In this document: positions 6,917 through 49,631 of the stretch, in pieces
How positions within the stretch are numbered: the stretch's first letter is position 1
Layout of the letters: each line of letters begins with the position of its first letter
Source: Planctomycetota bacterium
Lineage (GTDB): Bacteria; Planctomycetota; UBA11346
Direction of reading: 5' to 3'
Assembly (NCBI GenBank): GCA_038213805.1
Contig: JBBQSO010000001.1
Coordinates: forward strand, 64,001-128,000
DNA length: 64,000 nucleotides
The notes under the pieces: model-generated
The model's database searches: none
The model's input: the letters and a program-made list of their open reading frames with translations, nothing else
Told to the model about the DNA's origin: nothing
Position numbers and translations under genes: made by a program

Positions 6917-7142
6917 CGGCATGAGCGAAGCCCTCGTCCACCGACTCACACGCGAACATGTCCATCAGATCGCCGACCGGCGCATGCCACGGCGCTGCTC
7001 CTGGCGCATGGCCTTTGCAAGCAGGCCGCGGTGCACCCGCAGGCCTGCCTCGCGCCTGCGGGAAACTCCTGCGCAGTGAGCGCGGCCCAGCGGCAGTGCG
7101 ACGCGTGCGTGTGAGACGGGCGACCCGCTTCGCCAGTTCGCC

Positions 7143-7168
7143 GTCACCTTGTCGGCTTTCGGCGCAAT
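7143..7168 (+). promoter_or_regulatory. Candidate autoregulatory ECF promoter GTCACCT-N12-GCGCAAT
   Basis: Ends 17 nt before the ATG at 7186; matches the divergent copy at 6890-6916. Confidence 0.5.
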
Positions 7169-7185
7169 CAGATGCACCAGCCCGC

Positions 7186-15036: not shown

Positions 15037-15048
15037 ATCATATATGAT
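15037..15048. promoter_or_regulatory. AT-rich palindrome ATCATATATGAT, candidate repressor operator in the promoter of the catabolic operon
   Basis: Perfect 12-bp palindrome in a ~30-bp AT island, lying between a minus-strand TTGAAA and TAATCT. Confidence 0.5.
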
Positions 15049-15283
15049 ATATTTCAAGGGAGAGCCGTACGGGGTGCGACGGAGCGTTTCCGGGCTTGCG
15101 CCAGCAGCTCGCCGGGTCCCGACGCAAATCCGCATCTCATGTGCGCAAATCAGCAGCAACAGAGCGCAAACAGCAAAACGACGTCCCCGCCAACCCGTAC
15201 CATCTCGCGCCATGCCCTCCCCCGCTCCGTCGAAGCCGCGCCCCCTTGCTGGACCACCCGCAACGCCATGTGGTAGCCTGGGC

Positions 15284-19168: not shown

Positions 19169-19184
19169 ACGCGACGGGACCACC

Positions 19185-20621
19185 ATGCGCGACATCGCCT
19201 CCCATCTGCCCGGTATCCCGCTGTCACGGCGCGCCCTGCTCGGCCGCGGCGCGCTCGGCATCGGCGCGCTCGCCGCGAGCGCGCTGTTCGGCCCGCACCT
19301 GGACGCCGGCGAGCCGGTCGCGCACGCTGGGAACAACCCGCCGAAGGCGACGCACTTCCCGGCCAAGGCCACCAGCGTGATCTTCCTGTTCATGGACGGC
19401 GGCGTTTCGCAGGTCGACAGCTTCGACCCCAAACCGCTGCTGACCCAGGAAAATGGCAAACCATTCAAGATGAAGATGGAGCCGACCCAGTTCAACAACA
19501 ACGGCAACACCCTGGGCAGCCCGTGGGAGTTCAAAAACTACGGCCAGAGCGGCCTGCCGATCAGCGCGCTGTTCCCGCACATCGGCGGCTGCGCCGACGA
19601 TCTGACCATCATCCGCTCGCTGGTTTCAGAGTTTCCCGAGCATACCTCCGCCAACTACTTCGTGCACACCGGATCGGGCCTGCAGGGCCGCCCGTCGATG
19701 GGCGCGTGGGCGTCCTACGGACTGGGCAGCCGCTGCGCTGACCTGCCGGGTTTCATCGTGCTCAACGGCGGCCTGATCCCGCCGGGCGGGCTGGACTGCT
19801 TCGGCAATGGCTTCCTGCCCGCGACCTTCCAAAGCTCGATCTTCCGCGCCACCGCCCAACCGGTGGCCAACGTCCGGCCGAGCGAGCGCACACCGCAGCT
19901 GCAGCGCGACAAGCTGGCGTTGACGCGCGGCCTGGACCAGGGCCTGCTCGCCCGCGTCGGTGCCCAGGACGCGCTGGAATCGGCGATCGCCAACGCCGAA
20001 ATGGCGTTCGCCATGCAGACCTCGGTGCCGCAGCTCATGGACCTGTCCGGCGAGAGCGCCGCGACGCGGGCGCTGTACGGACTTGATTCGCAGTTCGAAC
20101 ACACGCGCAGCTACGCCGCGCAGTGCCTGGTCGCGCGCCGCCTGGTCGAGCGTGGCGTGCGCTTCATCGAGCTGACCTGCCCGCCCTGCTCCGGCGACCG
20201 CTGGGACCAGCACAGCGCACTCAAGAAGGGCCACGAGGAGAACGCGCGCGCCGTCGACCAGCCGATCGCCGGCCTGCTCACCGACCTCAAGGCGCGCGGG
20301 CTGCTCGACAGCACCCTGGTGGTGTTCAGCGGCGAGTTCGGCCGCACGCCCTTCGCGCAGGGTTCCGACGGGCGCGACCACAACCCCTTCGCATTCTCGG
20401 CATGGCTGGCCGGCGGTGGCGTCAAGGGCGGCCACATCCACGGCGCCACCGACGAGTACGGCTACAAGGTGGTCCAGGACAAGGTCGACGTCCATGACCT
20501 GCACGCCACCATGCTGCACCTCATGGGCATGGACCACAAACGCGTCACCTACCGCTACGGCGGCCGCGACATGCGCCTGACCGACGTGCACGGCGAAGTG
20601 GTGAAGGGCATCCTGGCCTGA
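19185..20621 (+). CDS. DUF1501 domain protein (Tat-exported)
   Basis: SRRALL Tat motif, VIFLFMDGGVSQVDSFDPKP, ARRLVERGVRF, GEFGRTP, GRDHNP, RLTDVHG. Confidence 0.95.
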   Translation: MRDIASHLPGIPLSRRALLGRGALGIGALAASALFGPHLDAGEPVAHAGNNPPKATHFPAKATSVIFLFMDGGVSQVDSFDPKPLLTQENGKPFKMKMEPTQFNNNGNTLGSPWEFKNYGQSGLPISALFPHIGGCADDLTIIRSLVSEFPEHTSANYFVHTGSGLQGRPSMGAWASYGLGSRCADLPGFIVLNGGLIPPGGLDCFGNGFLPATFQSSIFRATAQPVANVRPSERTPQLQRDKLALTRGLDQGLLARVGAQDALESAIANAEMAFAMQTSVPQLMDLSGESAATRALYGLDSQFEHTRSYAAQCLVARRLVERGVRFIELTCPPCSGDRWDQHSALKKGHEENARAVDQPIAGLLTDLKARGLLDSTLVVFSGEFGRTPFAQGSDGRDHNPFAFSAWLAGGGVKGGHIHGATDEYGYKVVQDKVDVHDLHATMLHLMGMDHKRVTYRYGGRDMRLTDVHGEVVKGILA

Positions 20622-30905: not shown

Positions 30906-31557
30906 GGCGATCGCGAGATCCACACGCGCATCACGCAATACGAGATGGCCTTCCGCATGCAGGCCGCAGTTGTGGAGCTGGTCGACCTCGCGCTGACGGG
31001 CGATGCGACCTTTGCGCTCTCCGACGAGGATGCGCGCAGACCCGGAACCTTGGCGCGCAATTCTCTGCTACCGCCGCCACGCAGAACGCAGCGTGCGCTG
31101 GATCCAGCCCTACCACCGCGGCTGGAACCACCACGGCGGCCTCGCCCAGCGGCTGCAGGTGGGCGCGCGTGATACCGACCAGGCCGCCGCCGGGCTGATC
31201 GCCAACCTGCGCCAGCGCCGCAGGCTTGACGATACCCTGCTGCTCTGGTCCGGCGCGTTCGGCCGCACCTGCTACGCCCAGGGCGGGGCCAACCGCGAGA
31301 AGTATGGCCGCGATCACCACGGTCGCGCCTTTTCCGCATGGCTCGCCGGAGGCGGCACCAAGCCCGGCATCAGCTGGGGCGCGAGCGACGACTTCGGCTT
31401 CAACATCGCCAGCGACCCGGTCCACGTCCACGATCTGCAGGCGGCCATCCTGCACTGCCTGGGCATCGACCACGAACGTCTCAGGTACCGCAGCCAGGGG
31501 CGGCAGTTTCGCTTGACGGATGTGGAGGGCAAGGTGGTGACGGGGATGCTGGCGTGA
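30906..31557 (+). pseudogene. C-terminal remnant of a second DUF1501 gene
   Basis: GDREIHTRITQYEMAFRMQ, frameshift near 31070, then AERSVRWIQPYHRGWNHH..FGRT..GRDHHG..VHVHDLQAAILHCLGIDHERL..RLTDVEG. N-terminal half is missing. Confidence 0.88.
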
Positions 31558-37988: not shown

Positions 37989-39731
37989 TCAGTGCGTCGG
38001 CGCCGGCGTCGCCGCGGCCGCGGGCGGCGCACTCGTCGGTGCCGTTGCCGCGGGTACCGTCGGGGCGGTCGTCGTGGCGGGCGGCGGTGCCAGCGCCGCG
38101 CCGACGTCGGCGAAGCTCATGTAGATCGACAGCACCACCAGCACCAGCAGCGCCGCCGCTGGTTTCGTACCGCGCCATGAGGTCATCTCGACATCGCCCG
38201 AGTACGCCTGGACCCAGGGCTCTGCCCGAGGGGCGATCTGCATGATGACGACCATCACGACGCACATCAGCACGAACACCGCGCCCAGGAAGTGGAAGCC
38301 ATTCACGACGTCGGTCAGCGGCACCAGCACGGTCGCGCCGTCCACCACGTGCGGCACCAGCGGCACGAAGTAGCCGGTGGCGATGACCAGGAAGCCGCCG
38401 ATCAGCCCGGTCTTGGCCGCGGCCGCCGGCAGGCGGCGCAGCAGCAGGCCCATCAGCACCACCGAGAAGATCGGGATGAAGTACATGCCGTTCATCTTCT
38501 GCAGGTAGCCGAAGATGCTGGTCTGCCCGGCGAGCATGGGCGCGACCGTCATCGCGACCAGCGCCACCACCAGGGCGAAGACCTTGCCGGCCTTCACAAC
38601 GCGATCCTCGGATGCGTTCTTGTCCCACAGGCCCTTGTAGATGCCCATGCTGAACAGCGTGGCGGTGCTGTTGAGCGCCGAGCCGAACGAGCTCAGCACC
38701 GCGCCCATCATCGCGGCCAGGAAGAACCCGGTGAGCGGGGCCGGCAGCACCTCGCGCACCAGCTTGCCGTAGGCGTGATCGGGCTTCAGGCCGCTGTCGG
38801 CATAGAGGTGGAAGGCGATGATGCCGGGCACCACCAGGTAGAGCGGGCCGAGCAGCTTCAGTGCGCCGGTCAGCAGCACGCCCTTCTGGCCCTCGGCGAG
38901 GTTGCGCGCGGCGAAGGTGCGCTGGATGATCGACTGGTTGGTGCACCAGTAGAAGGTGGTGAGCAGGATGACGCCGGTGAACAGCGTCGGGAATGGCACC
39001 GACTGGGTGGCCGTGCCGAGCGAGTTGAATTTTTCGGGGTGGGCGTGGGTCACGGTGTGCAGACCGGCGAGGATGCCTTCGCCCTTGCCGACCGCCGCCA
39101 GGGCGAAGCCGACGATCATCAGGCCGCCCGAGAGCAGCAGCACGCCATTGTAGGTGTCAGCCACCGCGATGCCGCGCATGCCGCCGAAGACGGCGTAGAT
39201 GGTGCCGACCAGGCCGACCACCCACACCGTCAGCCACAGCGCCGAGCCCGCGTCCTGGATGCCGGTCAGCCCCTGCACGTCGACGATCTCGTTCAGGCCG
39301 GTGGCGCCGGTATAGAGCACGATCGGCAGCAGGATGGCGGTGTAGGCGATCAGGAAGATGAGGTTGCAGATGACCTGCGTGCCGCGGTCGAAGCGCAGCT
39401 CGAGGAATTGCGGCACGGTCGAGATACCGCTGCGCAGGAAGCGCGGCAGGAAGAACAGCGCCATCGCCACCAGCGACAGCACCGAGACCACCTCCCAGGC
39501 CATGACGCTCAGGCCGTCACTGTAGGCGGCGCCGTTGAGTCCGACCAACTGCTCGGTCGAGAGGTTGGTGAGCAGCAGCGAGCCGGCGATGAACACCGCG
39601 CCCAGCGAGCGCCCCGCCAGGAAGTGGCTGGTGGTGGTCGACACCACCGTGCGCCGCACCGTCAGCCAGGTGCCGAGGGCGACCAGGCCGGTGAAGAAGG
39701 CGAACGAGGCGAAGGTGATGAGGGTGTGCAT
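37989..39731 (-). CDS. Solute:sodium symporter (SSS, YidK-like sugar transporter)
   Basis: FLAGRSL, LTNLSTEQLVGLNG, FLELRFD, FYWCTNQSIIQR, many TM helices. Confidence 0.93.
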   Translation of the reverse strand: MHTLITFASFAFFTGLVALGTWLTVRRTVVSTTTSHFLAGRSLGAVFIAGSLLLTNLSTEQLVGLNGAAYSDGLSVMAWEVVSVLSLVAMALFFLPRFLRSGISTVPQFLELRFDRGTQVICNLIFLIAYTAILLPIVLYTGATGLNEIVDVQGLTGIQDAGSALWLTVWVVGLVGTIYAVFGGMRGIAVADTYNGVLLLSGGLMIVGFALAAVGKGEGILAGLHTVTHAHPEKFNSLGTATQSVPFPTLFTGVILLTTFYWCTNQSIIQRTFAARNLAEGQKGVLLTGALKLLGPLYLVVPGIIAFHLYADSGLKPDHAYGKLVREVLPAPLTGFFLAAMMGAVLSSFGSALNSTATLFSMGIYKGLWDKNASEDRVVKAGKVFALVVALVAMTVAPMLAGQTSIFGYLQKMNGMYFIPIFSVVLMGLLLRRLPAAAAKTGLIGGFLVIATGYFVPLVPHVVDGATVLVPLTDVVNGFHFLGAVFVLMCVVMVVIMQIAPRAEPWVQAYSGDVEMTSWRGTKPAAALLVLVVLSIYMSFADVGAALAPPPATTTAPTVPAATAPTSAPPAAAATPAPTH

Positions 39732-39844
39732 GGTGCAGAAGTCTCCGGGCCGGATGACCGGCGGGCGGGGAGTGTCCCATGGTTCCCCGCCCCGCCAAGG
39801 GGGTGCGGGTGCGGCCTGCGGAAGGTGCTCCACCCAGACCGCGA

Positions 39845-39858
39845 CGATTGCGCAATCG
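39845..39858. promoter_or_regulatory. 14-bp palindrome CGATTGCGCAATCG, candidate operator
   Basis: Perfect palindrome in the divergent region between the SSS transporter and the ECF sigma gene. Confidence 0.35.
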
Positions 39859-39977
39859 CATGCAGGGCCGCCATTTGCAGGCAGATGCAAGCCCCAGCAT
39901 GCGGCCTTGGGCGCAGCGTGGCACGGGGGACGCCTGCAGGCAGGGTTGCACAAGCGCGAGTACGGCCAGGCATCCTG

Positions 39978-40002
39978 GTAACGATCGCGGGGGTACGGTA
40001 GA
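39978..40002 (+). promoter_or_regulatory. Candidate ECF promoter GTAAC-N15-GTAGA (autoregulatory)
   Basis: 9 nt separate it from ATG 40012; recurs at 44034 and 47387. Confidence 0.65.
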
Positions 40003-40011
40003 CTGTCCTGC

Positions 40012-40548
40012 ATGGGTACGGATCTCTCGGCCGCCGATCACGAGCGCTTCACCCGGCATTGGACCCTGGCCAGTCCGATGGTGGCGGACTACATCAGCGC
40101 CCTGGTGCCGAATTTCCATGAGGCCGAGGACCTGCTGCAGAACGTCGCCATCGTCGTCCTGCGCAAATTCGACCAGTACGACCAGGCGCTGCCCTTCGCC
40201 TTCTGGGCGATGGGCATCGCCCGCTATGAGGTATTGAGCAAGCGGCGCGAATTCTCGCGGCGGCGGGTGCTCTTCACTCCAGATCTCGCCGATCAGGCGG
40301 CCGAGCTCCAGCAGGAGATGAGCGCCGAGCACGAAGCCCGTCAGCGCGCCCTGCGGGACTGCCTGCGCGCGGTCGGTGAGCGCGCGACCACGGTGCTGCG
40401 CATGCGCTATGAAGAGGCACTCGAGCCGCGCGACATCGCCGAGCGCCTCGGCATGTCGTCAGGCGCCATCCGCGTGATGCTCAGTCGGGTGCGCTGCGTC
40501 CTCCAGGAGTGCATCCAGGCGAAGATCGCCGTGGCGGACCACCGCTGA
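40012..40548 (+). CDS. ECF sigma-70 factor (Planctomycete/Verrucomicrobia type)
   Basis: EAEDLLQNV, FAFWAMGIARYEV, LRMRY..IAERLGMSSGAIRVMLSRVR..LQECI. Confidence 0.93.
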   Translation: MGTDLSAADHERFTRHWTLASPMVADYISALVPNFHEAEDLLQNVAIVVLRKFDQYDQALPFAFWAMGIARYEVLSKRREFSRRRVLFTPDLADQAAELQQEMSAEHEARQRALRDCLRAVGERATTVLRMRYEEALEPRDIAERLGMSSGAIRVMLSRVRCVLQECIQAKIAVADHR

Positions 40549-42398
40549 TGACCGTGCCGCTCCCCCTCATCGATGCCTTCCTGGATGACCACCTGGACGA
40601 TGACCAGACCGTCGCGCTGCAGACCTGGTTGGCAGCCGATCGCGAGCACCTGCGGGCCTTCCTGCGCATCACGTCCGTGCACCGGGCGCTGCGCCGCGAG
40701 TTCACCAGCGCCCAGGCGCACGTACGCTTCTCAGCGCAGGCACCGAGCGCCACCACCCGTCGGTTGCGCATCGCGGCGCGGCGAGGCGGATCGCGGCGCC
40801 CGGTCGGGATGAACCCGTGGTGGCTGCGGGGCGCGGGCATCGCCGCCGGCCTGCTGCTGGCGATCGGCCTGGTCATGGGCGGTCACCGCGCCGGGGATGA
40901 CGCGGTCCAGATCGCCGCCGGTTCCGCCGTTATCGAGCGGCCGACGGGCCCGGTGCCGGCGCATGCGGGCGATGTGGTGCAGCGTGCCGATGCGATCGTT
41001 GCTGCGCAGGGCCCCGTCACCCTGCGCTTCGCCGATGGCACCACGGTGCGACTCGATGCGGATGCCCGGATCGTGCTGACGTCCGCAGGAAGCGCGGACC
41101 AAGGCAAGCGCCTGGAACTGGGCATGGGTCGGCTTTCCGCGAGCGTCGCCAAGCAGCCCAGCGGTCGTCCGCTGACCATCACCACCGCGACCGCGACCGC
41201 GGTGGTGGTCGGCACCGCATTCAGCCTGAGCAGCTCCGCGACTGCGACCCGCCTGGACGTCGAACACGGTCGCGTGCGGCTTGAGCGCCAAGTCGATGCC
41301 GCAACGGTCGAGGTCGGCGCCGGCGAATACGCGGTGGCGGACCCGGGCAGCGCATTGGTAGTGCGCAAGCAGGGCACCCTGCCGGGCGATGCCCCCCTGC
41401 ATGTCGGTGGCGCCCGGCACAACCAGCTCATTGGGCCGGATGGGAAGCGCTTCGTGTTGAAGGGCGCACAGGTCGGCCTCACCCTCTTCTATGCCCAGCT
41501 CGGCTCGCCGTGGGAATACCGGCTGCTCGCGGACCGGGCCGTGTTCGAGCGCGCCTTCAGCGGGCGCCTCGCACAGCTCGCGGCGATGAAGGCCAACGGC
41601 ATCAACACCGTGCGCATCTTCGTCGGCGGGGCGGTGGCCCACGACCCCAACAACGGGTATGCGACTCCAGAGCAGGGCTACGGCGGGTTCGCCGGCTATG
41701 TCCAGCGCCTGGTCACCTATGCCGACGATGCCCGCAACCAGGGGTTCCACGTCATCTTCTGCTACAATGGCGATGATGGGTGGTCGCAGGATACGAACTG
41801 GCCTGCGTATCGCAGACTGTTCAGCGCACTGGTGCCGGCGCTCGCGACCAACGGCAACGTGCTGTTCGAACTCGTCCATGAACCGGACATCGAAGATCGC
41901 GAATGGAGCCGGTGCAGCGTCCGCGCCATCGACCTTTTCCGTTCACTCGGATATCGGGGCCCACTCGTGGTCGACCTCGATCATCGCTGCAACTGGTGGT
42001 ATGAGCCCATCGTCGACGAAGTTTCCCGGCATGATCAGCAACTGGTCTTCAGCCTGCACTTCGCGAAATGGGTGGGCTGGGCGCACACCGAGGAAATGCT
42101 GCGCAACGGCGCCCATCGACCGGTGATCCTCGGACAGGTGACACCCAATGTGGGCAATGACCTTGGCGAGCCGGACGCCATCGCGGCCGTGGTCGCCATG
42201 CGTGCGCTGGTCACCCAGGAAATCGCGATCGGCGCCGTGGCGGCGGAATGGAATGCACGCGATGGCCAGCCTCCGACGCCCGGCACGGGCATGACAGACG
42301 ACGATGGCGCCCTCGTGCCGAACTCATGGGGCGTTGGATATCGTGATGGATTCAGTGGTCGCCTGCCTGATTGGCTCCCTGTCGCAACGCCTCCGTGA
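40548..42398 (+). CDS. Anti-sigma factor: FecR domain fused to a GH5-like TIM barrel
   Basis: TGATG overlap with the sigma gene; LIDAFLDD N-domain; TM helix; FecR FADGTTV..AVVVGTAF; GH5-like FVLKG, GINTVRI, VLFELVHEP, FSLHF, PVILGQ. Confidence 0.85.
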   Translation: MTVPLPLIDAFLDDHLDDDQTVALQTWLAADREHLRAFLRITSVHRALRREFTSAQAHVRFSAQAPSATTRRLRIAARRGGSRRPVGMNPWWLRGAGIAAGLLLAIGLVMGGHRAGDDAVQIAAGSAVIERPTGPVPAHAGDVVQRADAIVAAQGPVTLRFADGTTVRLDADARIVLTSAGSADQGKRLELGMGRLSASVAKQPSGRPLTITTATATAVVVGTAFSLSSSATATRLDVEHGRVRLERQVDAATVEVGAGEYAVADPGSALVVRKQGTLPGDAPLHVGGARHNQLIGPDGKRFVLKGAQVGLTLFYAQLGSPWEYRLLADRAVFERAFSGRLAQLAAMKANGINTVRIFVGGAVAHDPNNGYATPEQGYGGFAGYVQRLVTYADDARNQGFHVIFCYNGDDGWSQDTNWPAYRRLFSALVPALATNGNVLFELVHEPDIEDREWSRCSVRAIDLFRSLGYRGPLVVDLDHRCNWWYEPIVDEVSRHDQQLVFSLHFAKWVGWAHTEEMLRNGAHRPVILGQVTPNVGNDLGEPDAIAAVVAMRALVTQEIAIGAVAAEWNARDGQPPTPGTGMTDDDGALVPNSWGVGYRDGFSGRLPDWLPVATPP

Positions 42399-42409
42399 AG
42401 GATTCCCAC

Positions 42410-43909
42410 ATGCACCTGCGCACGACCACCACTGTCCTGGTTCTAGCGGCGCTGTCCTGCAGCGCGCTCCATGGGGCCGTCCATGAGGTCGGTCCGACGA
42501 CTCCGCTGGTGTTGTCGCTGGCCGACGTCGCCGGGGGCACCGATGTACGCAACAATGCCAAACACAATCCGGGCGGCGGCTACCTTAGTGTCTACGACGG
42601 CATCAAGGAATTCGGCTACCCGTCCACCCACGGCAACCAGCTTGGCAACACCGCGCTGGTCAATGACCATGTCTACTGGGATAGCAGCCCGGGCGGCCTC
42701 GACTTCACCCACACGCCACCTCCCGACGCGGGCTGCGGCAGTGCCTTGTGGTGGCCCATCCCCGGGGAATGGACAGCCTACCAGTTCGCGGTGACCAGCC
42801 CGGGAACCTATTCCGTGCTCTGCCGCTTCTCGTCATCGTGGGGACCGGCCAAGCCGGCCACGGCGGTGCTCACCATCGATGGCGTCGCCAGCGCGCCCGT
42901 GCCGCTGACTCCGGACGATCCGAAGCTGTGGTCCGATACGCACTACCAGGTGGGCGGGTGGTGGGGACACACCATGGTCAGCGGCACCTTTCCGGTCGCC
43001 TGGTCGCTGGGCACCGGCGCCCACGTGCTGCAGGTGCGCATCGACAGCTTCCCGGACAAGCCCACGGACCACGGCAATCTCTGGATCCATTATTTCAAGA
43101 TCACGTCGAGCAAGACCGCCGGCAGGGCGCCGGCCGTGGTGCTCAAACCTGTCGTGCCCCGCCAGCTGGCCGCGGCGAACGCGGCATTCAAGACGGCAGA
43201 GGAGTGCGAGCAGAAGGGGCGCCTGGGCCAAGCCATCGCCGCCTACGAGAAGGCGGCAGGCGGAGCGGTAGCAGGCAGCGATCTGAACGAGCGCGCCACG
43301 ACCAGGGCCAAGGCGCTGCGTGAGGCCGGCGAGCAGAAGCTCGCCGCTGCACGCGCCCTCGCACCCGAGGCGGCAGCGCCCGTCCTGGCGCGGATCGCGA
43401 GCGACTATGCCGGTAGCGACGTGGGCGACTCCGCACGTCCCTCGTCACCGGCGCAGACCCAGGCACCGCCCCAGAAGGCCCCCGCGGACACCGGCACGAC
43501 CGGGTGGACTGCACCCGACAAGCAGCAGGCGCTCTCCGCGCTCCGCACCATGATCCTGGACACCGCGGGGCGGATGCCGATCACAGCGACCATCGCGCTG
43601 TTCGGGAAGCCGCAGGCGGTGGTCGTCACCAAATGCGACAAGCAGGGTCTGGATCTCAGACTCACCGGCTCCAGCTCGGAAATCACCCTGCAATGGCAAC
43701 AGCTCGGCAACGAGGACCTGGGGCGGCTGGGGCAGGCCTGCATCCTCGGTCGCTCGGACCAGGCCCTTGCCGTTGGGGAGTGGTGCATCGCCTGCGGGCT
43801 CGAAACCCTGGCGAAAGCCACGCTGAATCGCGCGGCCGAACTCGATTCGCGGTTGGCGCCGGCAGTGGCCGAACGGCTACAGGCGCTCCACGCCAAGTCC
43901 GCGCCCTGA
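42410..43909 (+). CDS. Secreted protein: CBM6/35-like N-domain, TPR-like helices and uncharacterised C-terminal domain
   Basis: Signal peptide; GEWTAYQFAVTSPGTYSV, GAHVLQV, NLWIHYFKI; N-domain is paralogous to that of the next gene. Confidence 0.72.
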   Translation: MHLRTTTTVLVLAALSCSALHGAVHEVGPTTPLVLSLADVAGGTDVRNNAKHNPGGGYLSVYDGIKEFGYPSTHGNQLGNTALVNDHVYWDSSPGGLDFTHTPPPDAGCGSALWWPIPGEWTAYQFAVTSPGTYSVLCRFSSSWGPAKPATAVLTIDGVASAPVPLTPDDPKLWSDTHYQVGGWWGHTMVSGTFPVAWSLGTGAHVLQVRIDSFPDKPTDHGNLWIHYFKITSSKTAGRAPAVVLKPVVPRQLAAANAAFKTAEECEQKGRLGQAIAAYEKAAGGAVAGSDLNERATTRAKALREAGEQKLAAARALAPEAAAPVLARIASDYAGSDVGDSARPSSPAQTQAPPQKAPADTGTTGWTAPDKQQALSALRTMILDTAGRMPITATIALFGKPQAVVVTKCDKQGLDLRLTGSSSEITLQWQQLGNEDLGRLGQACILGRSDQALAVGEWCIACGLETLAKATLNRAAELDSRLAPAVAERLQALHAKSAP

Positions 43910-44033
43910 TGGCCTGACGGCGGGTCGCCATCCGCGCAGATCCCAACCACCTGGAGGAAGCGATCTGCCGCGTCCTGCAGGGATCGCCGTTTTGCGACCC
44001 GGTGGGACGGCGACAGAGTGCGGTGGAAACTCC

Positions 44034-44058
44034 GTAACGCGCAGCGTCGGCCGGTAGA
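44034..44058 (+). promoter_or_regulatory. Candidate ECF promoter GTAAC-N15-GTAGA
   Basis: GTAACG-N12-CGGTAGA, identical in boxes and spacing to 39978-40002. Confidence 0.65.
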
Positions 44059-44135
44059 TCTCGGGAGAATGAACGTCGTGGGCGTACGCACCGTCCGCCG
44101 CCGCGCTCTCTCATCGTGACCATCGGAGGAATCCC

Positions 44136-46259
44136 ATGAGCATCGCCCATCCCATCGCAGCTGGTCCGCTTCGGACGATGGCGTCGCGCGTTCGCCGCCG
44201 CTCCGCCTTGATCGCCATGCTCATCGCGCTGTTGATGGCCGGGGCGCAACCTGCCCAGACCGCGACCTTCGACGTGAGCCCAACCAGCCCGGCGATCATC
44301 CCGTTCTCCAGCGTCATCGGCGGATCGGATGCGGCGAACAACGCGAAGAACAACGCGAATGGCGGCTATTTCAGCGAATTTGACAATGTCAGTCAGTTCA
44401 ACTACCCGGCCGGTCATGGCAACCAGCTCCAGAACACGGCGATGATCAATGACAGCACCAACTATTTCGACAACGTGACCTGGCAAGGCGGACAGCCGGC
44501 CGGCTTGTCACTGTCGGGCGTTCCCGCCCCGGACGCGGGCTGCGGCGATGCGGCCTGGTGGCCGGCTCCCGGCGATTGGGTCTCGTACCAATTGAATGTC
44601 ACCACCGCCGGCACGTACACCGTCCTCACCCGTTTCTCGACGGCGTGGGGTCCGACCGGCACCGTGACCTACCATATGACAATCGATGGGGTCAGCAGCG
44701 GGCCAGTCACCATGCACCCGGACGACAACGCGTATTGGACGCCTGGAGCAGGCGGATTCCAGCGTCCGATCGATGGCTGGTGGGGACACAATTATGTCCC
44801 GGGCACCATGCCAACCGGCTGGAGTCTGGCCGTAGGACCGCACGTGCTCAAGGTCTTCATCGACAACTGGCCCGGCACAGCGCCTGGGCCCAGCTCCTCG
44901 GGCCCGGGCGACATCTGGCTGCATTACTTCAAGGTCCTGGCTGGCGGCACGCCGGTGTCCGGGCCGGTGCCCGCACCGACCTTCTCATTCTCGCCACTTC
45001 TGACCGCCACCGCCAATGGCTTGATGGCGACTGGTCCCGTGACGGTCACGATTGAGGACACCGATGCCACCGCGGTCATCCATTACACCACCGATGGCAG
45101 CACGCCGATGGCATCCTCGCCCACGTATACTGCGCCCTTCATCATCAGTGCCCTGGGCGCCGCGACCATCAAGGCACTGGCGATCGACGGTACCGACAGC
45201 GCGGTGGCGACCACGACGTTCACCATCGCTGCGCCCCCGACGGTGGCGACCGCGGCCAACGCCGCGCCGAACCCGGTGACGGGCACCACCACGGTGCTGA
45301 GCGCGCTGGGCGCAACCACCGGCGCGGGCGGCGAGCCGACGCTGACCTACACCTGGTCGACGACCGGGTCGACACCGGCGGCGGTGCGCTTCAGCGCGAA
45401 CGGCAGCAACGCCGCGAAATCGGTCACCGCCACCTTCGCCGGCGCCGGCACCTACAATTTCCAGGTCGCGATCGCCAACCCCTTCGGCTTATCGGTGACG
45501 AGCAGCGTCAGCGTGGTGGTGGACCGGACCGTGACGGGCGTGGCGGTGGTGCCGGGCACGGCGTGGATCTCGGCCGGCTCGAGCTTCACCTTCACCGCCT
45601 CGGCAGTCGACCAGTTCGGGGCCGTCATCTCCGGGACTCCGACCGTCACCTGGTCGGCGACGGGCGGCAGCATCACGGCGGGCGGAGCCTACACCGCCGG
45701 AAATGCCGCGGGCACCTTCTCGGTCACGGCGGCTTCGTCGACGGGCAGCGGGTCGGCGACGGTGGTGGTGACTGCCGGCTTTGCGGTCAGCATGACCTTC
45801 CAGCCCGCGCAGACGCCGCCCTTCGGCAACTACCTCGTCGACAACGGTGCGGTCTTCGGCGATCGCGGCAACGGCCTGAGTTACGGCTGGGACCAGGACC
45901 TCAGCACCTGGGCGCGCGAACGCCAAGGCAAGGGTGGCACGGCACCCGATGCCGGCCACGACCGCCTGATCTACGTGCAGCGCGCGGGCAATGCGGTCTT
46001 CCGCATCACCGTCCCGAACGGCACCTACAACGTCCACATCATCAGTGGTGACGCCGCCTACTCCGCCAGCGTCTTCAAGGTGTCCGCCCAGGGCGTGCTG
46101 GTGGTGGATGGGACGCCGACGCCGGGCAACCGCTGGATCGAAGGCACCCAGACCGTGACCGTCACCAACGGCACGATCGCGGTGACCAGCGCCAGTGGGG
46201 CGCAGAACAACAAGATCTGCCAGCTCGACATCGCCGTCGTCCCCGCAGCCGTCAACTAG
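44136..46259 (+). CDS. Secreted multidomain protein: CBM-like N-domain, chitobiase/FN3-associated domain, PKD-like, Ig-like and C-terminal galactose-binding-like domains
   Basis: GGAGG RBS; signal peptide; IHYTTDGSTP; PKD-like repeat shared with the M36 gene; FQPA...YLVDNG.VFGDRGNGLSYGW..VPNGTYNV. Confidence 0.8.
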   Translation: MSIAHPIAAGPLRTMASRVRRRSALIAMLIALLMAGAQPAQTATFDVSPTSPAIIPFSSVIGGSDAANNAKNNANGGYFSEFDNVSQFNYPAGHGNQLQNTAMINDSTNYFDNVTWQGGQPAGLSLSGVPAPDAGCGDAAWWPAPGDWVSYQLNVTTAGTYTVLTRFSTAWGPTGTVTYHMTIDGVSSGPVTMHPDDNAYWTPGAGGFQRPIDGWWGHNYVPGTMPTGWSLAVGPHVLKVFIDNWPGTAPGPSSSGPGDIWLHYFKVLAGGTPVSGPVPAPTFSFSPLLTATANGLMATGPVTVTIEDTDATAVIHYTTDGSTPMASSPTYTAPFIISALGAATIKALAIDGTDSAVATTTFTIAAPPTVATAANAAPNPVTGTTTVLSALGATTGAGGEPTLTYTWSTTGSTPAAVRFSANGSNAAKSVTATFAGAGTYNFQVAIANPFGLSVTSSVSVVVDRTVTGVAVVPGTAWISAGSSFTFTASAVDQFGAVISGTPTVTWSATGGSITAGGAYTAGNAAGTFSVTAASSTGSGSATVVVTAGFAVSMTFQPAQTPPFGNYLVDNGAVFGDRGNGLSYGWDQDLSTWARERQGKGGTAPDAGHDRLIYVQRAGNAVFRITVPNGTYNVHIISGDAAYSASVFKVSAQGVLVVDGTPTPGNRWIEGTQTVTVTNGTIAVTSASGAQNNKICQLDIAVVPAAVN

Positions 46260-46274
46260 AACCCGCGAGGCACC

Positions 46275-46598
46275 ATGCGCCTGATCCCCTTCCTCATGAT
46301 CTCCTTCGCCCTGGTAGGCTGCGGTAGCGGAGGGAATTTCGCCTTCGCTCCTGGCACCGTCATCAGCCGCACCAGGGTGACCCACTTCTGGCCCAATGGG
46401 CAGATGAAGGACACCGGCTTCATCGCCACCGACAGCCAGGGCAACACCCACCAGGTCGACCAGTGGCAGTTGTGGTTCGAGAACGGCCAGCCGCAGTGGC
46501 AAGGCACCTATACCAGCACCGGCGCGGTGGATGGCAGCCAGCCCTGGTTCGAGTGGAACAGCAACGGTTCGGTGCGTGACACCTGGATCGACCGCTGA
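46275..46598 (+). CDS. Small lipoprotein with MORN/YwqK-like beta-hairpin repeats
   Basis: Lipobox LVGC; FWPNGQMK, WFENGQPQWQGTY, WNSNGS. Confidence 0.78.
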   Translation: MRLIPFLMISFALVGCGSGGNFAFAPGTVISRTRVTHFWPNGQMKDTGFIATDSQGNTHQVDQWQLWFENGQPQWQGTYTSTGAVDGSQPWFEWNSNGSVRDTWIDR

Positions 46599-46667
46599 TC
46601 GCGTCCGGGCCTCTGCTCGTCGACACCACACATGTTCCCGTCCGATTGCGGGCGGGGAAAGAGTTCC

Positions 46668-47342
46668 ATGCGCCTGCGCATCCTGGCATCAGCCCACCTC
46701 ATCCTCGGTAGCGCTCTCGCCTGCCACGCCGCCGATGATTTCTACCGCCGCGCCAGCGTGCCGGACCTCTCCCACGAGTCATCATCGTGCGTCGACGATC
46801 TGCGAATCGGGTATTGGTTCATGCCGCTGGCCACCAACATCGACACCAGGCTGAACGGGGCGACGAGCTACCAGAAGCACGGTCACCTGCAATCAGGCAG
46901 CCGGACCTCGCTGCAGTGGGCGCTGCCGTTCACCGACCTGCGGAATGACGGGGATGGGCTGCTCGCCCTCGAACTCTCCAACATCCGATATCATCAGGAT
47001 CAGAGCACCACCGATCCGCTGATCGATCTGAACGCCTATGCGTTGACCCTGCATGTTGATCTGGCCTGGCCGATCGCCGGCGGTGGCCACATGGAGCTCG
47101 GGCCATTCCTGGGCTATGGCGTGTCTTCGGTAAGCGCACAGCACTGGAATGGCTTGTTCTGCGAGTTCGGCGGGCGCCTGGGCGCCTACTGGACCTTCGC
47201 CCGGCACCTGCAGGTCGGCCTCGATCTGCGCTACCTGGGCACGTATGCGCGCCAGGATTTCGCGGTCGGCGCCGCCAGTGAAGAGGTCGTGATCAAAACC
47301 AAGGGCGGATCCGCCGGCGTGCAGTTCGGCTACCGGTTCTGA
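46668..47342 (+). CDS. Outer-membrane beta-barrel protein (about 8 strands)
   Basis: Signal peptide, alternating amphipathic strands (ELGPFLGYG, GGRLGAYW, VGLDLRY), C-terminal GVQFGYRF signature. Confidence 0.8.
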   Translation: MRLRILASAHLILGSALACHAADDFYRRASVPDLSHESSSCVDDLRIGYWFMPLATNIDTRLNGATSYQKHGHLQSGSRTSLQWALPFTDLRNDGDGLLALELSNIRYHQDQSTTDPLIDLNAYALTLHVDLAWPIAGGGHMELGPFLGYGVSSVSAQHWNGLFCEFGGRLGAYWTFARHLQVGLDLRYLGTYARQDFAVGAASEEVVIKTKGGSAGVQFGYRF

Positions 47343-47386
47343 GCGCGGCGCAGCCGGGCGCTGCTCCACCCTCCGAAAGTTTTCCG

Positions 47387-47411
47387 GTAACACCTCGCCA
47401 AACCAGGAAGA
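47387..47411 (+). promoter_or_regulatory. Candidate ECF promoter GTAAC-N15-GAAGA
   Basis: Same spacing and same 9-nt gap to an ATG (47421) as the copy upstream of the sigma gene. Confidence 0.55.
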
Positions 47412-47420
47412 CCCACAGGC

Positions 47421-49631
47421 ATGGAGCCAGCACTCGGTTCGGCACATGTCAGGAACAACGCGCAGACAGGCGATAGAGCATGCGTGCCGATGCCGGTGCG
47501 CTGTGGAGCAATGCCGTGTGCGGGCAAAACGCCCGGAACCCCTGGGATCACCCGCTGCGGCTTCACGCTTTTTGAAGTCGCCATCTCGCTCGGCCTCGCC
47601 GCCTTCGGGGTGGTCAGCGTCATGATGCTCTTCCCGCAGGGCATCAAGGCCCAGCAGATGGCCCGCTCCCGCTTCTTCGCCGCCACCAAGGCGCTGGAGA
47701 TGGTCGACAGTTACAACTCCTTCAACAACGCCACCGCGAACATCGACAACGAGGCGCCCGATCCCTGGGACGTCCCGACCGGTCGCTGCAGCTCTGCCAA
47801 CGACCTCGAGCGCCGCCTCGCCTCGCCGCGTTTCGGCATCGCGCCCCTGCCAACGGAGATCGCCAAGCGCCTCGATTCCGATGGCGACGAGATCCGGCAG
47901 ATCCTCGGCGACGGCGGTTTGCTGTATTATTCCCAACCGCAGGCGGCCGCCGGCTTCATGGAAACCGGGACGCCCGCGGCGCCACCGGTCGAGGCCCAGC
48001 GCCTGGTCTTCGCCGTGGTCGGCTATGCCCAGGACAACGCCATCCACGTGTTCCCCTGGAAGGCATGGCCGTACTACACGCCCTATCCGTCGCCGCCGAT
48101 GCACGGCTACCACCAGTACGAGGCCGATCCGGCGGTCCTGCAGTCGGTGCCGGCGGATGCCCTGCATTACTCCGCGGGCAGCTTCACGGTGGATCCTTTC
48201 CAGAATTCCCGGGACTGGGACACCGATCGTATGCTTATCGAGGACGCCAACGACCCGGACATGCGCAAGGTCTTCACCTGCACCAACCAGGCGGCCTCCG
48301 CAGGCGCCCCCGCCGGTTCCGTCGAGTTCGGCTACAAGCAGCACTTCAGGGAGCGGAGCCTGGACTCGGCGCTGCGCTACTGCGCCGCCGCCCTGTGGTA
48401 TTGCGAGCGCAAGTTTCCCGGCGCGGCGGCCTCATACTTCCTCACCAGCGCACCCTTGACGACCTTCCCGACCTCGGTCCCGCAGGACCGCAAGGGGGAC
48501 CTGGTGAACTGCCTGCGTTTCCTTTCGCACGCCACCACCTGCCTGACCGCCTTCGCCAGCAAGGGCACGCTGGATGCGGGCGTGATGGTTCCGCAACTGA
48601 CCGTGGATTCCCTGACCTCGCCGGCGGCCCTGGTGACGACGAGCGTCATCATCAACCAGCACGAGAGCTGCCTCGACCTGGCCATGCTGTTCGCCGCGAG
48701 CTACCCCTACGACTGGGCCGCTCCGCGACCGGAAAACCGCATGATCATGATGGATCATCCACTGCTGGAATACGATCTCTTCCCCACCAGCTCCGCGCCC
48801 ATGCTGAGCGGCAGGATCTGGCCCGGAAATCCGCTGATCCCGGCGAACCAGTGGCGTCCCATCGCCGCCCAGCCGATCGTGCACATCGGGCGCAGCTACC
48901 AGTTCCCCAGCGAAGACATCCCCAGCGCCAATCCGGTGTGGTCCTGGTGGGGCTCCACCACGCCTCCGACGCCACCCTATGCGGCCGGCCAGCCCAGCAC
49001 GTTCTGGGGTGACCCCAGCCATTTCACCCTGACCAACACCTTCGAGCCCAGCGAGCGCTGCCGGCAGCTGGTCTTCTGGGCGGTCGATTGGATGCAATAC
49101 GAGGACTGCGAGACCGCCCCGAGCGCACCCATCGACGCGAGCCGCTACACCCGCTCAGCGCCGAAGGCGAGGGCCGCAGCGGGCGGCCCGGTGGACACGG
49201 TCGATAAGCTGTTCGATGCGCCGGCGTTCATGGAGTGGGCCCAGCAGAGCACCAACCGCAATCCGGAGAAGACCATGATCTTCTCGGTCCCGACCGCCGG
49301 GAAGCCGGATGGGTACACCGGCGCGGATGTGGGACTGCCCAAGACCTTCTCCGATGGCTTCGCCTGGACCCTGCGCTTCGGAAACGACGGCGTCCCGACG
49401 CCGCCGACGTGGAATCCCTGGGCCTTCGGGCACAAGCGCGACCAGGGCATGACGCCCCTTGCGCCGAGCGACCCGGATCCGCGCAAGCTCTTCCTGGGGC
49501 GCTTCGGCGCCGATCGCAACTTCAATGGGCGGCTTGATCGTGGCACGCTCCCCGTCTCCGTCCGCCTCCGCGCCCAGACCGTGGCGCGCTTCAACTACTA
49601 CGATCTGCGCGTCCCCGCCATGATCCGCTGA
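47421..49631 (+). CDS. Large prepilin-type protein (PilV/GspI-like N-terminus)
   Basis: RCG|FTLFEVAISLGLAAFGVVSVMMLFPQG class III signal with Glu5; ~660-aa head domain. Start may be 47421 or a downstream ATG such as 47511. Confidence 0.82.
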   Translation: MEPALGSAHVRNNAQTGDRACVPMPVRCGAMPCAGKTPGTPGITRCGFTLFEVAISLGLAAFGVVSVMMLFPQGIKAQQMARSRFFAATKALEMVDSYNSFNNATANIDNEAPDPWDVPTGRCSSANDLERRLASPRFGIAPLPTEIAKRLDSDGDEIRQILGDGGLLYYSQPQAAAGFMETGTPAAPPVEAQRLVFAVVGYAQDNAIHVFPWKAWPYYTPYPSPPMHGYHQYEADPAVLQSVPADALHYSAGSFTVDPFQNSRDWDTDRMLIEDANDPDMRKVFTCTNQAASAGAPAGSVEFGYKQHFRERSLDSALRYCAAALWYCERKFPGAAASYFLTSAPLTTFPTSVPQDRKGDLVNCLRFLSHATTCLTAFASKGTLDAGVMVPQLTVDSLTSPAALVTTSVIINQHESCLDLAMLFAASYPYDWAAPRPENRMIMMDHPLLEYDLFPTSSAPMLSGRIWPGNPLIPANQWRPIAAQPIVHIGRSYQFPSEDIPSANPVWSWWGSTTPPTPPYAAGQPSTFWGDPSHFTLTNTFEPSERCRQLVFWAVDWMQYEDCETAPSAPIDASRYTRSAPKARAAAGGPVDTVDKLFDAPAFMEWAQQSTNRNPEKTMIFSVPTAGKPDGYTGADVGLPKTFSDGFAWTLRFGNDGVPTPPTWNPWAFGHKRDQGMTPLAPSDPDPRKLFLGRFGADRNFNGRLDRGTLPVSVRLRAQTVARFNYYDLRVPAMIR

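Follow-up and report, generated by a model that had tools for sequence, protein, structure and literature searches.

A FecR-type anti-sigma factor of Planctomycetota fused to a GH5-derived barrel with an incomplete catalytic pair, a putative periplasmic glycan sensor

We analysed a 64,000-nucleotide stretch of a Planctomycetota contig, hereafter the window, in which an ECF sigma factor gene is followed by the gene of a single-pass anti-sigma factor and by genes for two secreted proteins with CBM6/35-like domains, a small lipoprotein-like protein, and a small outer-membrane protein (Table 1). The sigma factor scored 139.8 bits against TIGR02989 (cut-off 124.55), and the TGA stop codon of its gene overlaps the ATG of the anti-sigma gene (TGATG, 40546–40550). 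The latter is an ORF of 616 aa without internal stop, and its start methionine is identical in all 11 orthologues of the alignment. The gene of the 499-aa secreted protein starts 12 nt past the anti-sigma stop and thus probably belongs to the same operon. A scan of genome contigs yielded three related loci (L001, L002, and L003). The order of sigma, anti-sigma, and CBM6/35-like genes is kept in all three, with sigma homologues of 60–98% identity directly before the anti-sigma gene, and two of them additionally keep the 707-aa protein and the outer-membrane protein (L001 and L002, with 92% and 51% identity of the latter, respectively).

Table 1 Features of the sigma/anti-sigma locus (window coordinates; residue numbers refer to the anti-sigma factor)
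Feature	Position	Strand	Basis
ECF-type promoter-like motif GTAACG-N14-GTAGAC, proposed autoregulation site	39978–40003	+	Pattern, conserved in L001–L003
ECF sigma factor, 178 aa, Rhodopirellula/Verrucomicrobium family	40012–40548	+	TIGR02989, Sigma70_r2, r4_2
Anti-sigma factor, 616 aa	40548–42398	+	N-terminal anti-sigma region, one transmembrane helix, FecR domain, GH5-derived barrel
Cytoplasmic N-terminal region, residues 1–90: FecR-type anti-sigma domain, then Arg-rich stretch	40548–40817	+	DUF4880, conservation
Single hydrophobic transmembrane segment, residues ~91–112, WWLRGAGIAAGLLLAIGLVMGG	40818–40883	+	Translation, by eye
FecR domain, residues 152–244, periplasmic	41001–41279	+	PF04773
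G222-T223, candidate self-cleavage bond	41211–41216	+	Gly-Thr within FecR domain, invariant
GH5-derived (β/α)8 barrel, residues 285–616, periplasmic, proposed sensor	41400–42395	+	AlphaFold2, Foldseek, profile, dN/dS
H444-E445 replacing Asn-Glu of the GH5 'NEP' acid/base motif	41877–41882	+	Codons, alignment
Q530 (CAG) at nucleophile Glu position, end of strand β7	42135–42137	+	Codons, alignment, model
Secreted 499-aa protein: signal peptide, CBM6/CBM35-like β-sandwich (~230 aa), Ala-rich C-terminal region	42410–43909	+	AlphaFold2, Foldseek
Second promoter-like motif GTAACG-N14-GTAGAT, 77 nt upstream of the 707-aa gene	44034–44059	+	Pattern, conserved position
Secreted 707-aa protein: CBM6/35-like, CHB_HEX_C/Fn3_assoc, PKD-like, C-terminal galactose-binding-like or malectin-like	44136–46259	+	Pfam, Atlas
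Small lipoprotein-like ORF, 107 aa, LVGC lipobox	46275–46598	+	ORF list; same protein encoded in L002 intergenic stretch, by eye
Small outer-membrane β-barrel protein, 236 aa	46632–47342	+	Weak Autotransporter and OMP_b-brl matches below cut-off

The AlphaFold2 model of the 499-aa protein, whose start methionine is shared by the database copy P0045, has a pLDDT of 80 and matched CBM6, CBM35, and GH115 C-terminal domains in Foldseek (E 5e-8 to 1e-4); this fold search agreed with a preceding Atlas search of the N-terminal domain, in which the leads were CBM6, CBM35, and GH115_C, all below 0.9. The CBM6/35-like domain of the 707-aa protein is paralogous, with 43–44% identity to the N-terminal domain of the 499-aa protein. 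Atlas leads for the 707-aa protein were AGA-YXIM_GBD (0.91) and malectin (0.87), and Pfam recognised no catalytic domain in it. No enzyme or transporter pointing to an obvious nutritional circuit was found, the downstream genes encoding binding modules only. The original prediction that signalling would do without the signalling domain of a TonB receptor was in keeping with the gene content, as neither the conserved cluster nor the 33 window ORFs covered by the scan (6 + 27) included a TonB-dependent receptor gene.

Exact matches to the promoter-like pattern GTAACG-N14-GNAGAY occur twice in the window, as against 0.02 expected; since the pattern was derived from the counted sites, the evidence lies in its conservation across loci and not in this count. 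The first motif is found upstream of the sigma gene at the equivalent position in L001, L002, and L003. With 8 nt between its end and the sigma ATG, the sigma transcript probably has no leader or a very short one. The position of the second motif before the 707-aa gene is likewise filled in L001 and L002, and in L003 a second motif precedes the single CBM6/35-like gene of that locus; one additional match lies inside the L003 anti-sigma gene. Tolerating one mismatch added a single site at 47387–47412, located 8 nt before the ATG of a 736-aa prepilin-like gene; with three sites found in total and 0.71 expected, it is at chance level and was therefore left out of the regulon. Scanning 39600–47600 for sigma-70 promoters and intrinsic terminators returned none of either and did not inform the operon boundaries.

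The anti-sigma protein is confirmed as a FecR-type single-pass anti-sigma factor fused to a GH5-derived barrel. Its N-terminal region (residues 1–90) is strongly conserved across all 12 aligned proteins and contains a DUF4880 match at residues 13–42, which with 23.7 bits is slightly below the Pfam cut-off of 25. Positive charges flank the transmembrane segment on its N-terminal side. The FecR domain was recognised by Pfam (PF04773) with 54.3 bits against a cut-off of 24, and the NCBIfam FecR model NF007296 aligned to residues 146–258. The predicted succession of a FecR domain and a GH5-like barrel was thus recovered, by the Pfam score for the former and by the predicted fold for the latter. 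Besides FecR, DUF4880, and Cellulase, no Pfam family matched the protein, and no FecR C-terminal signal-receiving domain was detected. Within the FecR domain, G222-T223 is invariant in the 12 aligned proteins. Gly-Thr self-cleavage is described for FecR at G181-T182 and for FoxR at G191-T192 (PMC9249621). The NF007296 offset places G222 near model position 180, making its equivalence to G181 of FecR approximate, and we regard G222-T223 as a candidate cleavage site.

By sequence, the GH5 assignment of the window protein alone is sub-threshold, with a Pfam Cellulase/GH5 (PF00150) match at residues 345–505 of 22.0 bits against a cut-off of 23.5. The orthologue P0014 scored 37.5 bits and the nearest free-standing relatives 59–72 bits, and five of the 12 proteins of the homologue set carry a precomputed PF00150 annotation. 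Structure prediction and comparison, as advised in the original prediction, gave a confident barrel of eight β/α units (mean pLDDT 94.1, pTM 0.93), for which GH5 enzymes, cellulases, and β-mannanases occupied all top ranks of a Foldseek search of the PDB (TM 0.55–0.68); among the matches listed through rank 40, all but one were so described. GH5 structures were reached by sequence only with a family profile, with 125 PDB sequences matched at E ≤ 0.001. Phmmer searches of the PDB with a single query sequence gave one chance match for the barrel (E 1.3) and no matches for residues 1–301. The best profile match was Thermobifida fusca endoglucanase E-5 (2cks, E 1.1e-22), in which the NEP and nucleophile columns of the profile line up with those of 2cks (TEFG motif). 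The structural neighbours are only ~15% identical, comprise mannanases as well as glucanases, and name no ligand.

Two active-site substitutions had been proposed for the barrel, a histidine for the asparagine of NEP in FELVHEP and a glutamine for the nucleophile glutamate in PVILGQ, and both were located at exactly these codons. Residues F440–P446 are encoded by TTC GAA CTC GTC CAT GAA CCG, and the Q530 codon stands in the context CCG GTG ATC CTC GGA CAG. In the AlphaFold2 model, H444 and E445 directly follow strand β4, and strand β7 (model residues 242–247, corresponding to 526–531) has Q530 at its C-terminal end. The acid/base glutamate E445 is retained in the window protein; replaced are the preceding asparagine and the nucleophile. 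Q530 falls in the column that holds the nucleophile in 23 of 24 free-standing relatives and matches the TEFG motif of 2cks, and no other glutamate is available on the modelled strand β7 (VILGQV). A sequencing error is not behind the glutamine, as the CAG codon is identical in L001, an independent assembly of 91% identity, and P0002 likewise encodes Q. Alignment and model support the view that, owing to Q530, the barrel would be unable to run the canonical two-Glu retaining mechanism.

The FecR–GH5 fusion is rare. We found 14 sequences, of which the three with a stated source derive from Planctomycetota MAGs. None of the 14 fused proteins has both catalytic glutamates, as compared to 23 of 24 free-standing relatives in the same alignment, which together with Q530 supports the catalytic part of the pseudoenzyme claim. 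The E-to-Q exchange itself, for which conservation in homologues was to be checked, proved not to be conserved: the nucleophile position is occupied by Q in three, E in seven, A in two, and S in two fused proteins. The acid/base Glu is present in two of the 14 (the window protein and P0013, which has a perfect NEP) versus 24/24 free relatives, the Asn of NEP in three versus 24/24, and the Tyr of strand β6 in one versus 24/24. The sole free relative without the nucleophile Glu is P0031, which was omitted from the tree because its C-terminal part diverges from the family. P0016 (315 aa, 45% identical, with NEP and GEFG kept) begins inside the barrel and may or may not be FecR-fused; it was counted with the free relatives in the catalytic-residue tally and omitted from the tree, and the 147-aa fragment P0019 was omitted from every alignment. 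The 14 fused sequences form one clade (support 100/100) nested among free-standing GH5s with the catalytic pair, and within it at least three losses of the nucleophile Glu have taken place; the acid/base Glu requires at least two changes. What stays constant in these alignments is that the catalytic pair is incomplete, not any single substitution; loss of the pair is a family-wide trait of the fused orthologues.

Forty-two positions do not vary within the fused clade, and their residues are rare among the free relatives. As a set, they are not concentrated on the catalytic face (15 of 42 in β–α loops versus 102 of 332 positions overall). Such a concentration was seen only for the aromatic and polar subset W412, H479, N482, W483, W484, and W508, which lie in the loops following strands 3, 5, and 6.

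In classical FecR proteins, the C-terminal module takes the signal from a TonB-dependent transducer. On balance, we lean towards interpreting the locus as a TonB-independent FecR variant, in which a GH5-derived pseudoenzyme serves as periplasmic glycan sensor controlling the neighbouring CBM-like genes. The anti-sigma N-terminus would hold the sigma factor in the cytoplasm, with the FecR domain and the barrel in the periplasm, where the classical C-terminal module would have been replaced by a GH5-derived barrel that gave up canonical catalysis. The barrel would bind without cutting a glycan present in the periplasm, and its occupancy may alter the susceptibility of the FecR part to a proteolytic cascade that would proceed from Gly-Thr self-cleavage to a site-1 protease and on to an RseP-type site-2 protease. 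The freed sigma factor would transcribe from GTAACG-N14-GNAGAY promoters, with its own operon (sigma, anti-sigma, and the 499-aa CBM6/35-like protein) and the 707-aa gene as targets; the lipoprotein and the small outer-membrane protein would probably be transcribed behind the latter. A more far-reaching version, which we offer tentatively and think somewhat more apt to fail than to hold, is a Planctomycetota-specific mode of TonB-independent FecR signalling, for which a once-active GH5 enzyme was captured as input module and later lost its activity separately in several lineages, as though selection had acted against hydrolysis of the signal, and in which the sensor co-evolved with a private CBM6/35-like secreted family under a leaderless autoregulated GTAACG-N14-GNAGAY promoter.

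The barrel might instead perceive glycans through a protein partner. It would then dock the CBM6/35-like domain of the 499-aa or the 707-aa protein, or the lipoprotein/outer-membrane protein pair, and this partner would be the true glycan receptor, a role like that of the TonB-dependent transducer in classical FecR signalling. With 22 proteins, the CBM6/35-like family is comparable to the fused family in its small size, and its gene follows the anti-sigma gene in each of the three related loci. Several members are on contigs equally long to those of the anti-sigma orthologues (68542, 48546, 23611, 15128, and 9507), although equal length is only an indirect sign of co-occurrence. The best Foldseek matches of the CBM-like model are to the CBM6 of CtXyl5A entries (5la2, 5la0, 5g56, and 2y8k), and this CBM6 packs against a GH5 module. 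Partner sensing would also match the protein–protein contact by which classical FecR proteins signal (PMC9249621). However, membership of the regulon would explain the CBM6/35-like, lipoprotein, and outer-membrane protein genes just as well, and we consider it unlikely that they encode the receptor.

We think it very improbable that the barrel is still an enzyme, i.e., a tethered periplasmic glycosidase performing non-canonical hydrolysis or transglycosylation via E541 or D538, by substrate assistance, or with an exogenous nucleophile or base. Both of these acidic residues are invariant in the fused clade and located in the β7–α7 loop, E445 and its counterpart in P0013 are kept, and seven fused proteins retain the nucleophile Glu. 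Yet the member of the catalytic pair that is missing differs among orthologues that share the gene context, and four of them (P0009–P0012) lack both, so that a function shared by all cannot depend on either glutamate; moreover, the Tyr found together with the nucleophile in every free relative is missing from 13 of the 14 fused proteins, and the modelled strand β7 has no acidic residue at all. Given the seven proteins with the nucleophile Glu and the two with the acid/base Glu, some members could have non-canonical activity. A decaying, functionless GH5 remnant, or an artefact of assembly or sequencing errors, is scarcely credible. The sub-threshold Pfam GH5 score of the window protein would suit a relic, but the dN/dS of the barrel between the window and L001 is 0.132 (332 codons, dS 0.34), by which measure the barrel is under purifying selection and not decaying. 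Intact full-length ORFs in 14 sequences with identities down to 48% and the confident fold prediction also argue against a relic, and the repeated CAG in L001 against an artefact.

The glycan sensor that we favour has known counterparts. That GH modules act as anti-sigma sensors in Clostridium thermocellum, as the original prediction stated, is borne out by two reports: the GH5 module of Rsi24C has lost its acid/base residue, binds crystalline cellulose, and signals through the anti-sigma domain (PMC3526467), and RsgI6 carries a GH10 module for which binding to xylan and Avicel is described (PMC10328401). Rsi24C-GH5 and RsgI6-GH10 share with the window protein the organisation of a membrane anti-sigma factor with an extracytoplasmic C-terminal GH-family module and incomplete catalytic machinery; polysaccharide detection is known for the clostridial proteins. 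The anti-sigma scaffold is a FecR domain with a DUF4880-type N-terminus here and of the RsgI type in C. thermocellum, the sigma factors are ECF TIGR02989 and sigma-I/sigma-24, respectively, and the sensor would be located in the periplasm of a diderm planctomycete as opposed to a Gram-positive surface. RsgI undergoes Asn-Pro autoproteolysis in its own periplasmic domain (PMC10328401), in place of which the window protein has the invariant FecR-type Gly-Thr. Relatedness of the GH5 modules here and in Rsi24C is seen at the family level only, and the resemblance to the Rsi24C/RsgI sensors looks like convergence.

The FecI/FecR/FecA systems (E. coli FecR, P. aeruginosa FoxR) likewise combine an ECF sigma gene with a following gene for a single-pass FecR-domain anti-sigma factor with a conserved Gly-Thr. 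Unlike in those systems, the cluster and the scanned window ORFs lack a TonB-dependent transducer gene, the sigma factor is of the Rhodopirellula/Verrucomicrobium family, and CBM-like proteins are encoded instead of an iron-carrier transporter. Two relatives of the N-terminal FecR part in Planctomycetota, P0040 and P0042, have the same N-terminal scaffold (35–44% identity over the matched part) and a glycan-related C-terminus in place of the classical one, but their sensor module differs from that of the window protein, with a right-handed β-helix in P0040 and a CBM96 in P0042; known from sequence alone, they indicate modularity and not mechanism. Non-catalytic GH5 modules listed in the subfamily classification of GH5 include GH5_30, a Xanthomonas expansin-linked group, and lipoproteins near GH5_8, none of which is described as fused to a FecR-type anti-sigma factor in the portions of those sources available to us. 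In our literature search, to which most work in subscription journals was closed, no paper surfaced that describes a planctomycetotal anti-sigma factor of the FecR type whose sensor derives from GH5 or another CAZyme.

Planctomycetes play an important part in the breakdown of complex glycans. They possess very many ECF sigma factors, the inputs of which are mostly not known. The module described here joins a recognisable input, a GH5-derived putative binder, to a recognisable output, a promoter-like motif before CBM-rich genes, which makes the circuit directly testable. It may represent a clean natural case of an enzyme turned receptor, in which orthologues removed different catalytic residues while the fold and new loop residues were conserved. 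The GH5-like, β-helix, and CBM96 versions suggest that direct-sensing modules can be mounted on the FecR scaffold, which is known chiefly from its pairing with TonB-dependent transducers. If the more far-reaching version is true, no glycan-sensing pseudoenzyme on a FecR scaffold would have been described before this one; it would match the clostridial RsgI/Rsi24C sensors by convergence and would offer a direct handle on how planctomycetes perceive the polysaccharides that they take into the periplasm.

The anti-sigma gene starts at position 40548, because all 11 full-length homologues of its product, P0001, begin at that Met; a GTG at 40509 was ruled out as the start by the same common Met. 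Its ATG overlaps the TGA of the preceding ECF sigma factor gene by one base (TGATG, 40546–40550). The translation has a single hydrophobic segment at approximately residues 91–112 with an Arg-rich stretch before it, and from this topology the FecR domain and the C-terminal barrel (residues 285–616) are predicted to be periplasmic. In the homologue alignment G222–T223 of P0001 is invariant, and by the offset of the NF007296 match it lies approximately at the aligned position of FecR G181–T182.

Features of the sigma/anti-sigma locus (window coordinates, or residues of P0001)
Feature	Position	Strand	Evidence or remarks
Promoter-like motif, sigma gene	39978–40003	+	ends 8 nt before sigma ATG
ECF sigma factor, Rhodopirellula/Verrucomicrobium family	40012–40548	+	TIGR02989, 139.8 bits (cut-off 124.55)
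Anti-sigma gene	40548–42398	+	ORF translation, 616 aa (P0001)
DUF4880	residues 13–42		Pfam, 23.7 bits (cut-off 25)
FecR domain	residues 152–244		Pfam, 54.3 bits
Cellulase/GH5	residues 345–505		Pfam, 22.0 bits (cut-off 23.5)
499-aa secreted protein	42410–43909	+	start as in P0045
CBM6/35-like domain	42410–43195 and 44136–~44960	+	in the 499-aa and 707-aa proteins
Promoter-like motif, 707-aa gene	44034–44059	+	77 nt before the 707-aa gene
707-aa secreted protein	44136–46259	+	CHB_HEX_C, Fn3_assoc and PKD-like modules
107-aa lipoprotein-like ORF	46275–46598	+	LVGC lipobox, W/Q-rich repeats; conserved in L002
236-aa small beta-barrel OMP	46632–47342	+	51% identical in L002

A phmmer search of PDB sequences with the P0001 sequence found nothing. 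The Pfam Cellulase model scored 37.5 bits on the orthologue P0014 and exceeded its cut-off in 25 of 26 scanned relatives (P0014–P0039, all except P0025). The AlphaFold2 model of residues 285–616, computed from a 37-row alignment, comprised eight strand–helix units with a mean pLDDT of 94.1 and a pTM of 0.93. Among the Foldseek matches in the PDB listed through rank 40, all but one were GH5 enzymes, cellulases or beta-mannanases by description, led by the mannanases 1wky, 2whj and 3jug and followed by endoglucanases (TM values 0.55–0.68, ~15% identity). The family profile had matches to 125 different PDB sequences (E ≤ 0.001), with Thermobifida fusca endoglucanase E-5 (2cks) at the top (1.1e-22); its NEP column falls on the NEP of 2cks and its G/T-E column on TEFG, and 2ckr, which ranks second, is this chain carrying Q at the nucleophile position. 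The relatives' Pfam scores, the model, Foldseek and the family profile settle that the C-terminal part of P0001 is GH5-like despite its sub-threshold Pfam score.

The original prediction was of a FecR anti-sigma factor with a dead GH5 domain as periplasmic sensor, and fold, profile and motif positions bear out the altered GH5-like barrel. The motifs FELVHEP and PVILGQ lie exactly where it had placed them, with CAT GAA at 41877–41882 encoding H444–E445 and CAG at 42135–42137 encoding Q530. In the model, H444–E445 directly follow beta-4 (residues 438–441) and Q530 is at the C-terminal end of beta-7 (residues 526–531). Modelled beta-7 contains no acidic residue. CAG is not a sequencing error, because it recurs at this codon in the related locus L001, which comes from an independent assembly; the orthologue P0002, 79% identical to P0001, also has Q at this position. 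At the acid/base codons L001 reads AAT GAA versus CAT GAA in the window.

Residues at catalytic positions in the barrel alignment of 14 FecR-fused proteins and 24 free-standing relatives; P0019, a fragment of 147 aa, is not included
Position	Free relatives	Fused proteins
Asn of NEP	N in 24/24	N in 3/14
Acid/base Glu	E in 24/24	E in 2/14 (window protein, HEP; L001 protein P0013, NEP)
Nucleophile	E in 23/24	E 7, Q 3, A 2, S 2 (n = 14)
Beta-6 Tyr	Y in 24/24	Y in 1/14
Both Glu	23/24	0/14

The exchange of E to Q is not conserved in homologues, as E, A or S also occur at this position in fused proteins; what is conserved in them is an incomplete catalytic pair and not one given substitution. The sole free relative without the nucleophile Glu, P0031, diverges from the family in its C-terminal part. 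Comparative and structural evidence thus supports the pseudoenzyme reading well.

Twelve proteins, counting the query, came from a word-indexed search of 5.8 billion clusters; they are 616–629 aa long and all have FecR. With the barrel only, an exhaustive search across 1.84 billion representatives gave 28 proteins at E ≤ 0.001, of which three are FecR-fused (P0001, P0012, P0014), and a scan of genome contigs yielded three loci (L001–L003), all titled Planctomycetota MAGs, with the L001 copy 91% identical to P0001. The fused sequences total 14, and they formed one clade (100/100) in a maximum-likelihood tree of 36 barrels, which excludes the incomplete P0016 and P0031 and whose root was set by distant family members, not inferred. 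This clade is nested among free GH5s with both Glu (P0015, P0017, P0018, P0023, P0025). On the tree the nucleophile Glu was lost at least three times, and the acid/base Glu changed at least twice (one loss and one regain) or was lost four times. Comparison of the window with L001 gave a dN/dS of 0.132 for the barrel (dS 0.34) and of 0.157 over the full gene; purifying selection therefore acts on the barrel domain. At 42 positions all members of the fused clade have a residue that is shared by less than one quarter of free relatives. Among these, W412, H479, N482, W483, W484 and W508 are located in the loops that follow strands 3, 5 and 6, and D538 and E541 come behind strand 7. The 42 positions were not enriched on the catalytic face (15/42 in beta-alpha loops vs 102/332).

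One further protein, P0016 (315 aa, 45% identity with the barrel), retains the two catalytic Glu (NEP, GEFG), has the GEPDAIAAA motif of the fused clade and ends in a Pro-rich tail. Its sequence begins inside the barrel; should the complete protein turn out to be fused to FecR, the family would include a member with intact catalytic residues.

Downstream, the 499-aa and 707-aa secreted proteins have in common an N-terminal domain of ~230 aa (43–44% identical). No Pfam model matched this domain; in the PDB its structure model (pLDDT 80) matched CBM6, CBM35 and the C-terminal domain of GH115 (E 5e-8 to 1e-4), and a large protein collection contains just 22 members of the family (P0045–P0066). 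Several of them are on contigs equal in size to those of anti-sigma orthologues, which points to a private family of partners or regulon members. As a lead only, the C-terminal domain of the 707-aa protein is similar to galactose-binding (Atlas 0.91) or malectin domains (0.87). Neither a catalytic domain nor a TonB-dependent receptor was detected in the cluster or in the 33 window ORFs scanned. The sigma, anti-sigma and CBM6/35-like genes adjoin in all three related loci, followed in L001 and L002 by the 707-aa homologue and the OMP.

Comparison of upstream regions between the window and L002 and L003 (protein identity to the window no more than 48–70%) revealed the motif GTAACG-N14-G(T/C/A)AGA(C/T). 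Its AAC-containing upstream element resembles ECF -35 boxes. In the 64-kb window the exact pattern is present twice vs 0.02 expected; it was derived from the counted sites, so that the case is cross-locus conservation of sequence and position and not a shuffle statistic. L001 and L002 have the motif at the same two places; L003 has it before the sigma gene and before its single CBM6/35-like gene, which there does not adjoin the anti-sigma gene directly but follows an intergenic region. Because the -10-like element ends 8–9 nt before the sigma start codon in every locus (window 39978–40011, L002 1844–1877, L003 674–708), the spacing suggests that the sigma transcript is leaderless or nearly so.

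An exact motif copy inside the L003 anti-sigma coding sequence (2353–2378, +; codons R-N-G ... A-D-G), absent at the equivalent place in the other loci, may be a coding-sequence coincidence or an internal promoter. A one-mismatch copy in the window (GTAACA-N14-GAAGAC, 47387–47412, +) ends 8 nt before the ATG of a 736-aa gene (47421–49631) with a prepilin-like GFTLFEV motif, placed just as the motif is before the sigma gene; it was not counted towards the regulon, as the three sites found with one mismatch allowed vs 0.71 expected are within chance.

The window is planctomycete-like in its PSCyt1/PSCyt2/PSD1 and DUF1501 genes. A full DUF1501 gene (19038–20621) adjoins a PSCyt1/PSCyt2/PSD1 gene (15038–19168), and a 186-aa ORF (30997–31557, +) that matches only positions 231–389 of the 390 in the DUF1501 model may be a copy that is truncated or split. 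A second ECF sigma/FecR anti-sigma pair (6958–7713 and 7710–8840, both +) has overlapping stop and start; its 376-aa anti-sigma factor (FecR, 46 bits) has a short C-terminal part that matches no family and is followed by a 325-aa ORF (8837–9814, +) of seemingly two similar halves. The ORF at 1–4362 (+) extends past the window start, encodes at least 1453 aa and has fungalysin-type M36 metallopeptidase (375 bits), BACON-like and PKD domains.

The clostridial precedent named in the original prediction is real: PMC3526467 and PMC10328401 describe GH modules as anti-sigma sensors in Clostridium thermocellum. Rsi24C-GH5 has lost the catalytic acid/base and binds crystalline cellulose, which lets the signal reach the intracellular anti-sigma domain (PMC3526467), and the GH10 module of RsgI6 binds xylan and Avicel (PMC10328401). 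Rsi24C-GH5 is a functional analogue of P0001, and RsgI6 is similar; however, the clostridial sensors have another anti-sigma scaffold, another sigma family and Asn-Pro autoproteolysis, and act in a Gram-positive cell. None of the further non-catalytic GH5 groups in the passages of PMC3526467 is described there as a FecR fusion. The available part of an ECF group review (PMC7826278) covers FecR-like anti-sigma factors paired with TonB-dependent receptors, as well as groups in Bacteroidetes that are linked to carbohydrates, and does not describe a FecR–GH5 architecture; a literature search, with most subscription journals outside its coverage, found no description of it either.

According to PMC9249621, classical FecR receives its C-terminal signal from a TonB-dependent transducer and is processed by Gly-Thr self-cleavage, then by Prc and RseP. 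In P0001 the GH5-derived barrel takes the place of the classical C-terminal module. For binding, ligand identity, proteolysis and regulon we infer a variant of the circuit in which this barrel would bind glycan without cleaving it. Such binding would control proteolytic release of the sigma factor, which, once freed, would drive its own operon and the CBM-rich genes. A sensor role and independence from a TonB-dependent transducer are plausible and backed by context. On this reading P0001 would be a counterpart of the clostridial GH-module sensors that arose by convergence on a FecR scaffold, in a fusion so far confined to a small planctomycete lineage. Because relatives of its N-terminal FecR part bear other C-terminal modules, a right-handed beta-helix (P0040) or CBM96 (P0042), their domain architecture would fit FecR-X proteins as a modular family of direct glycan sensors.
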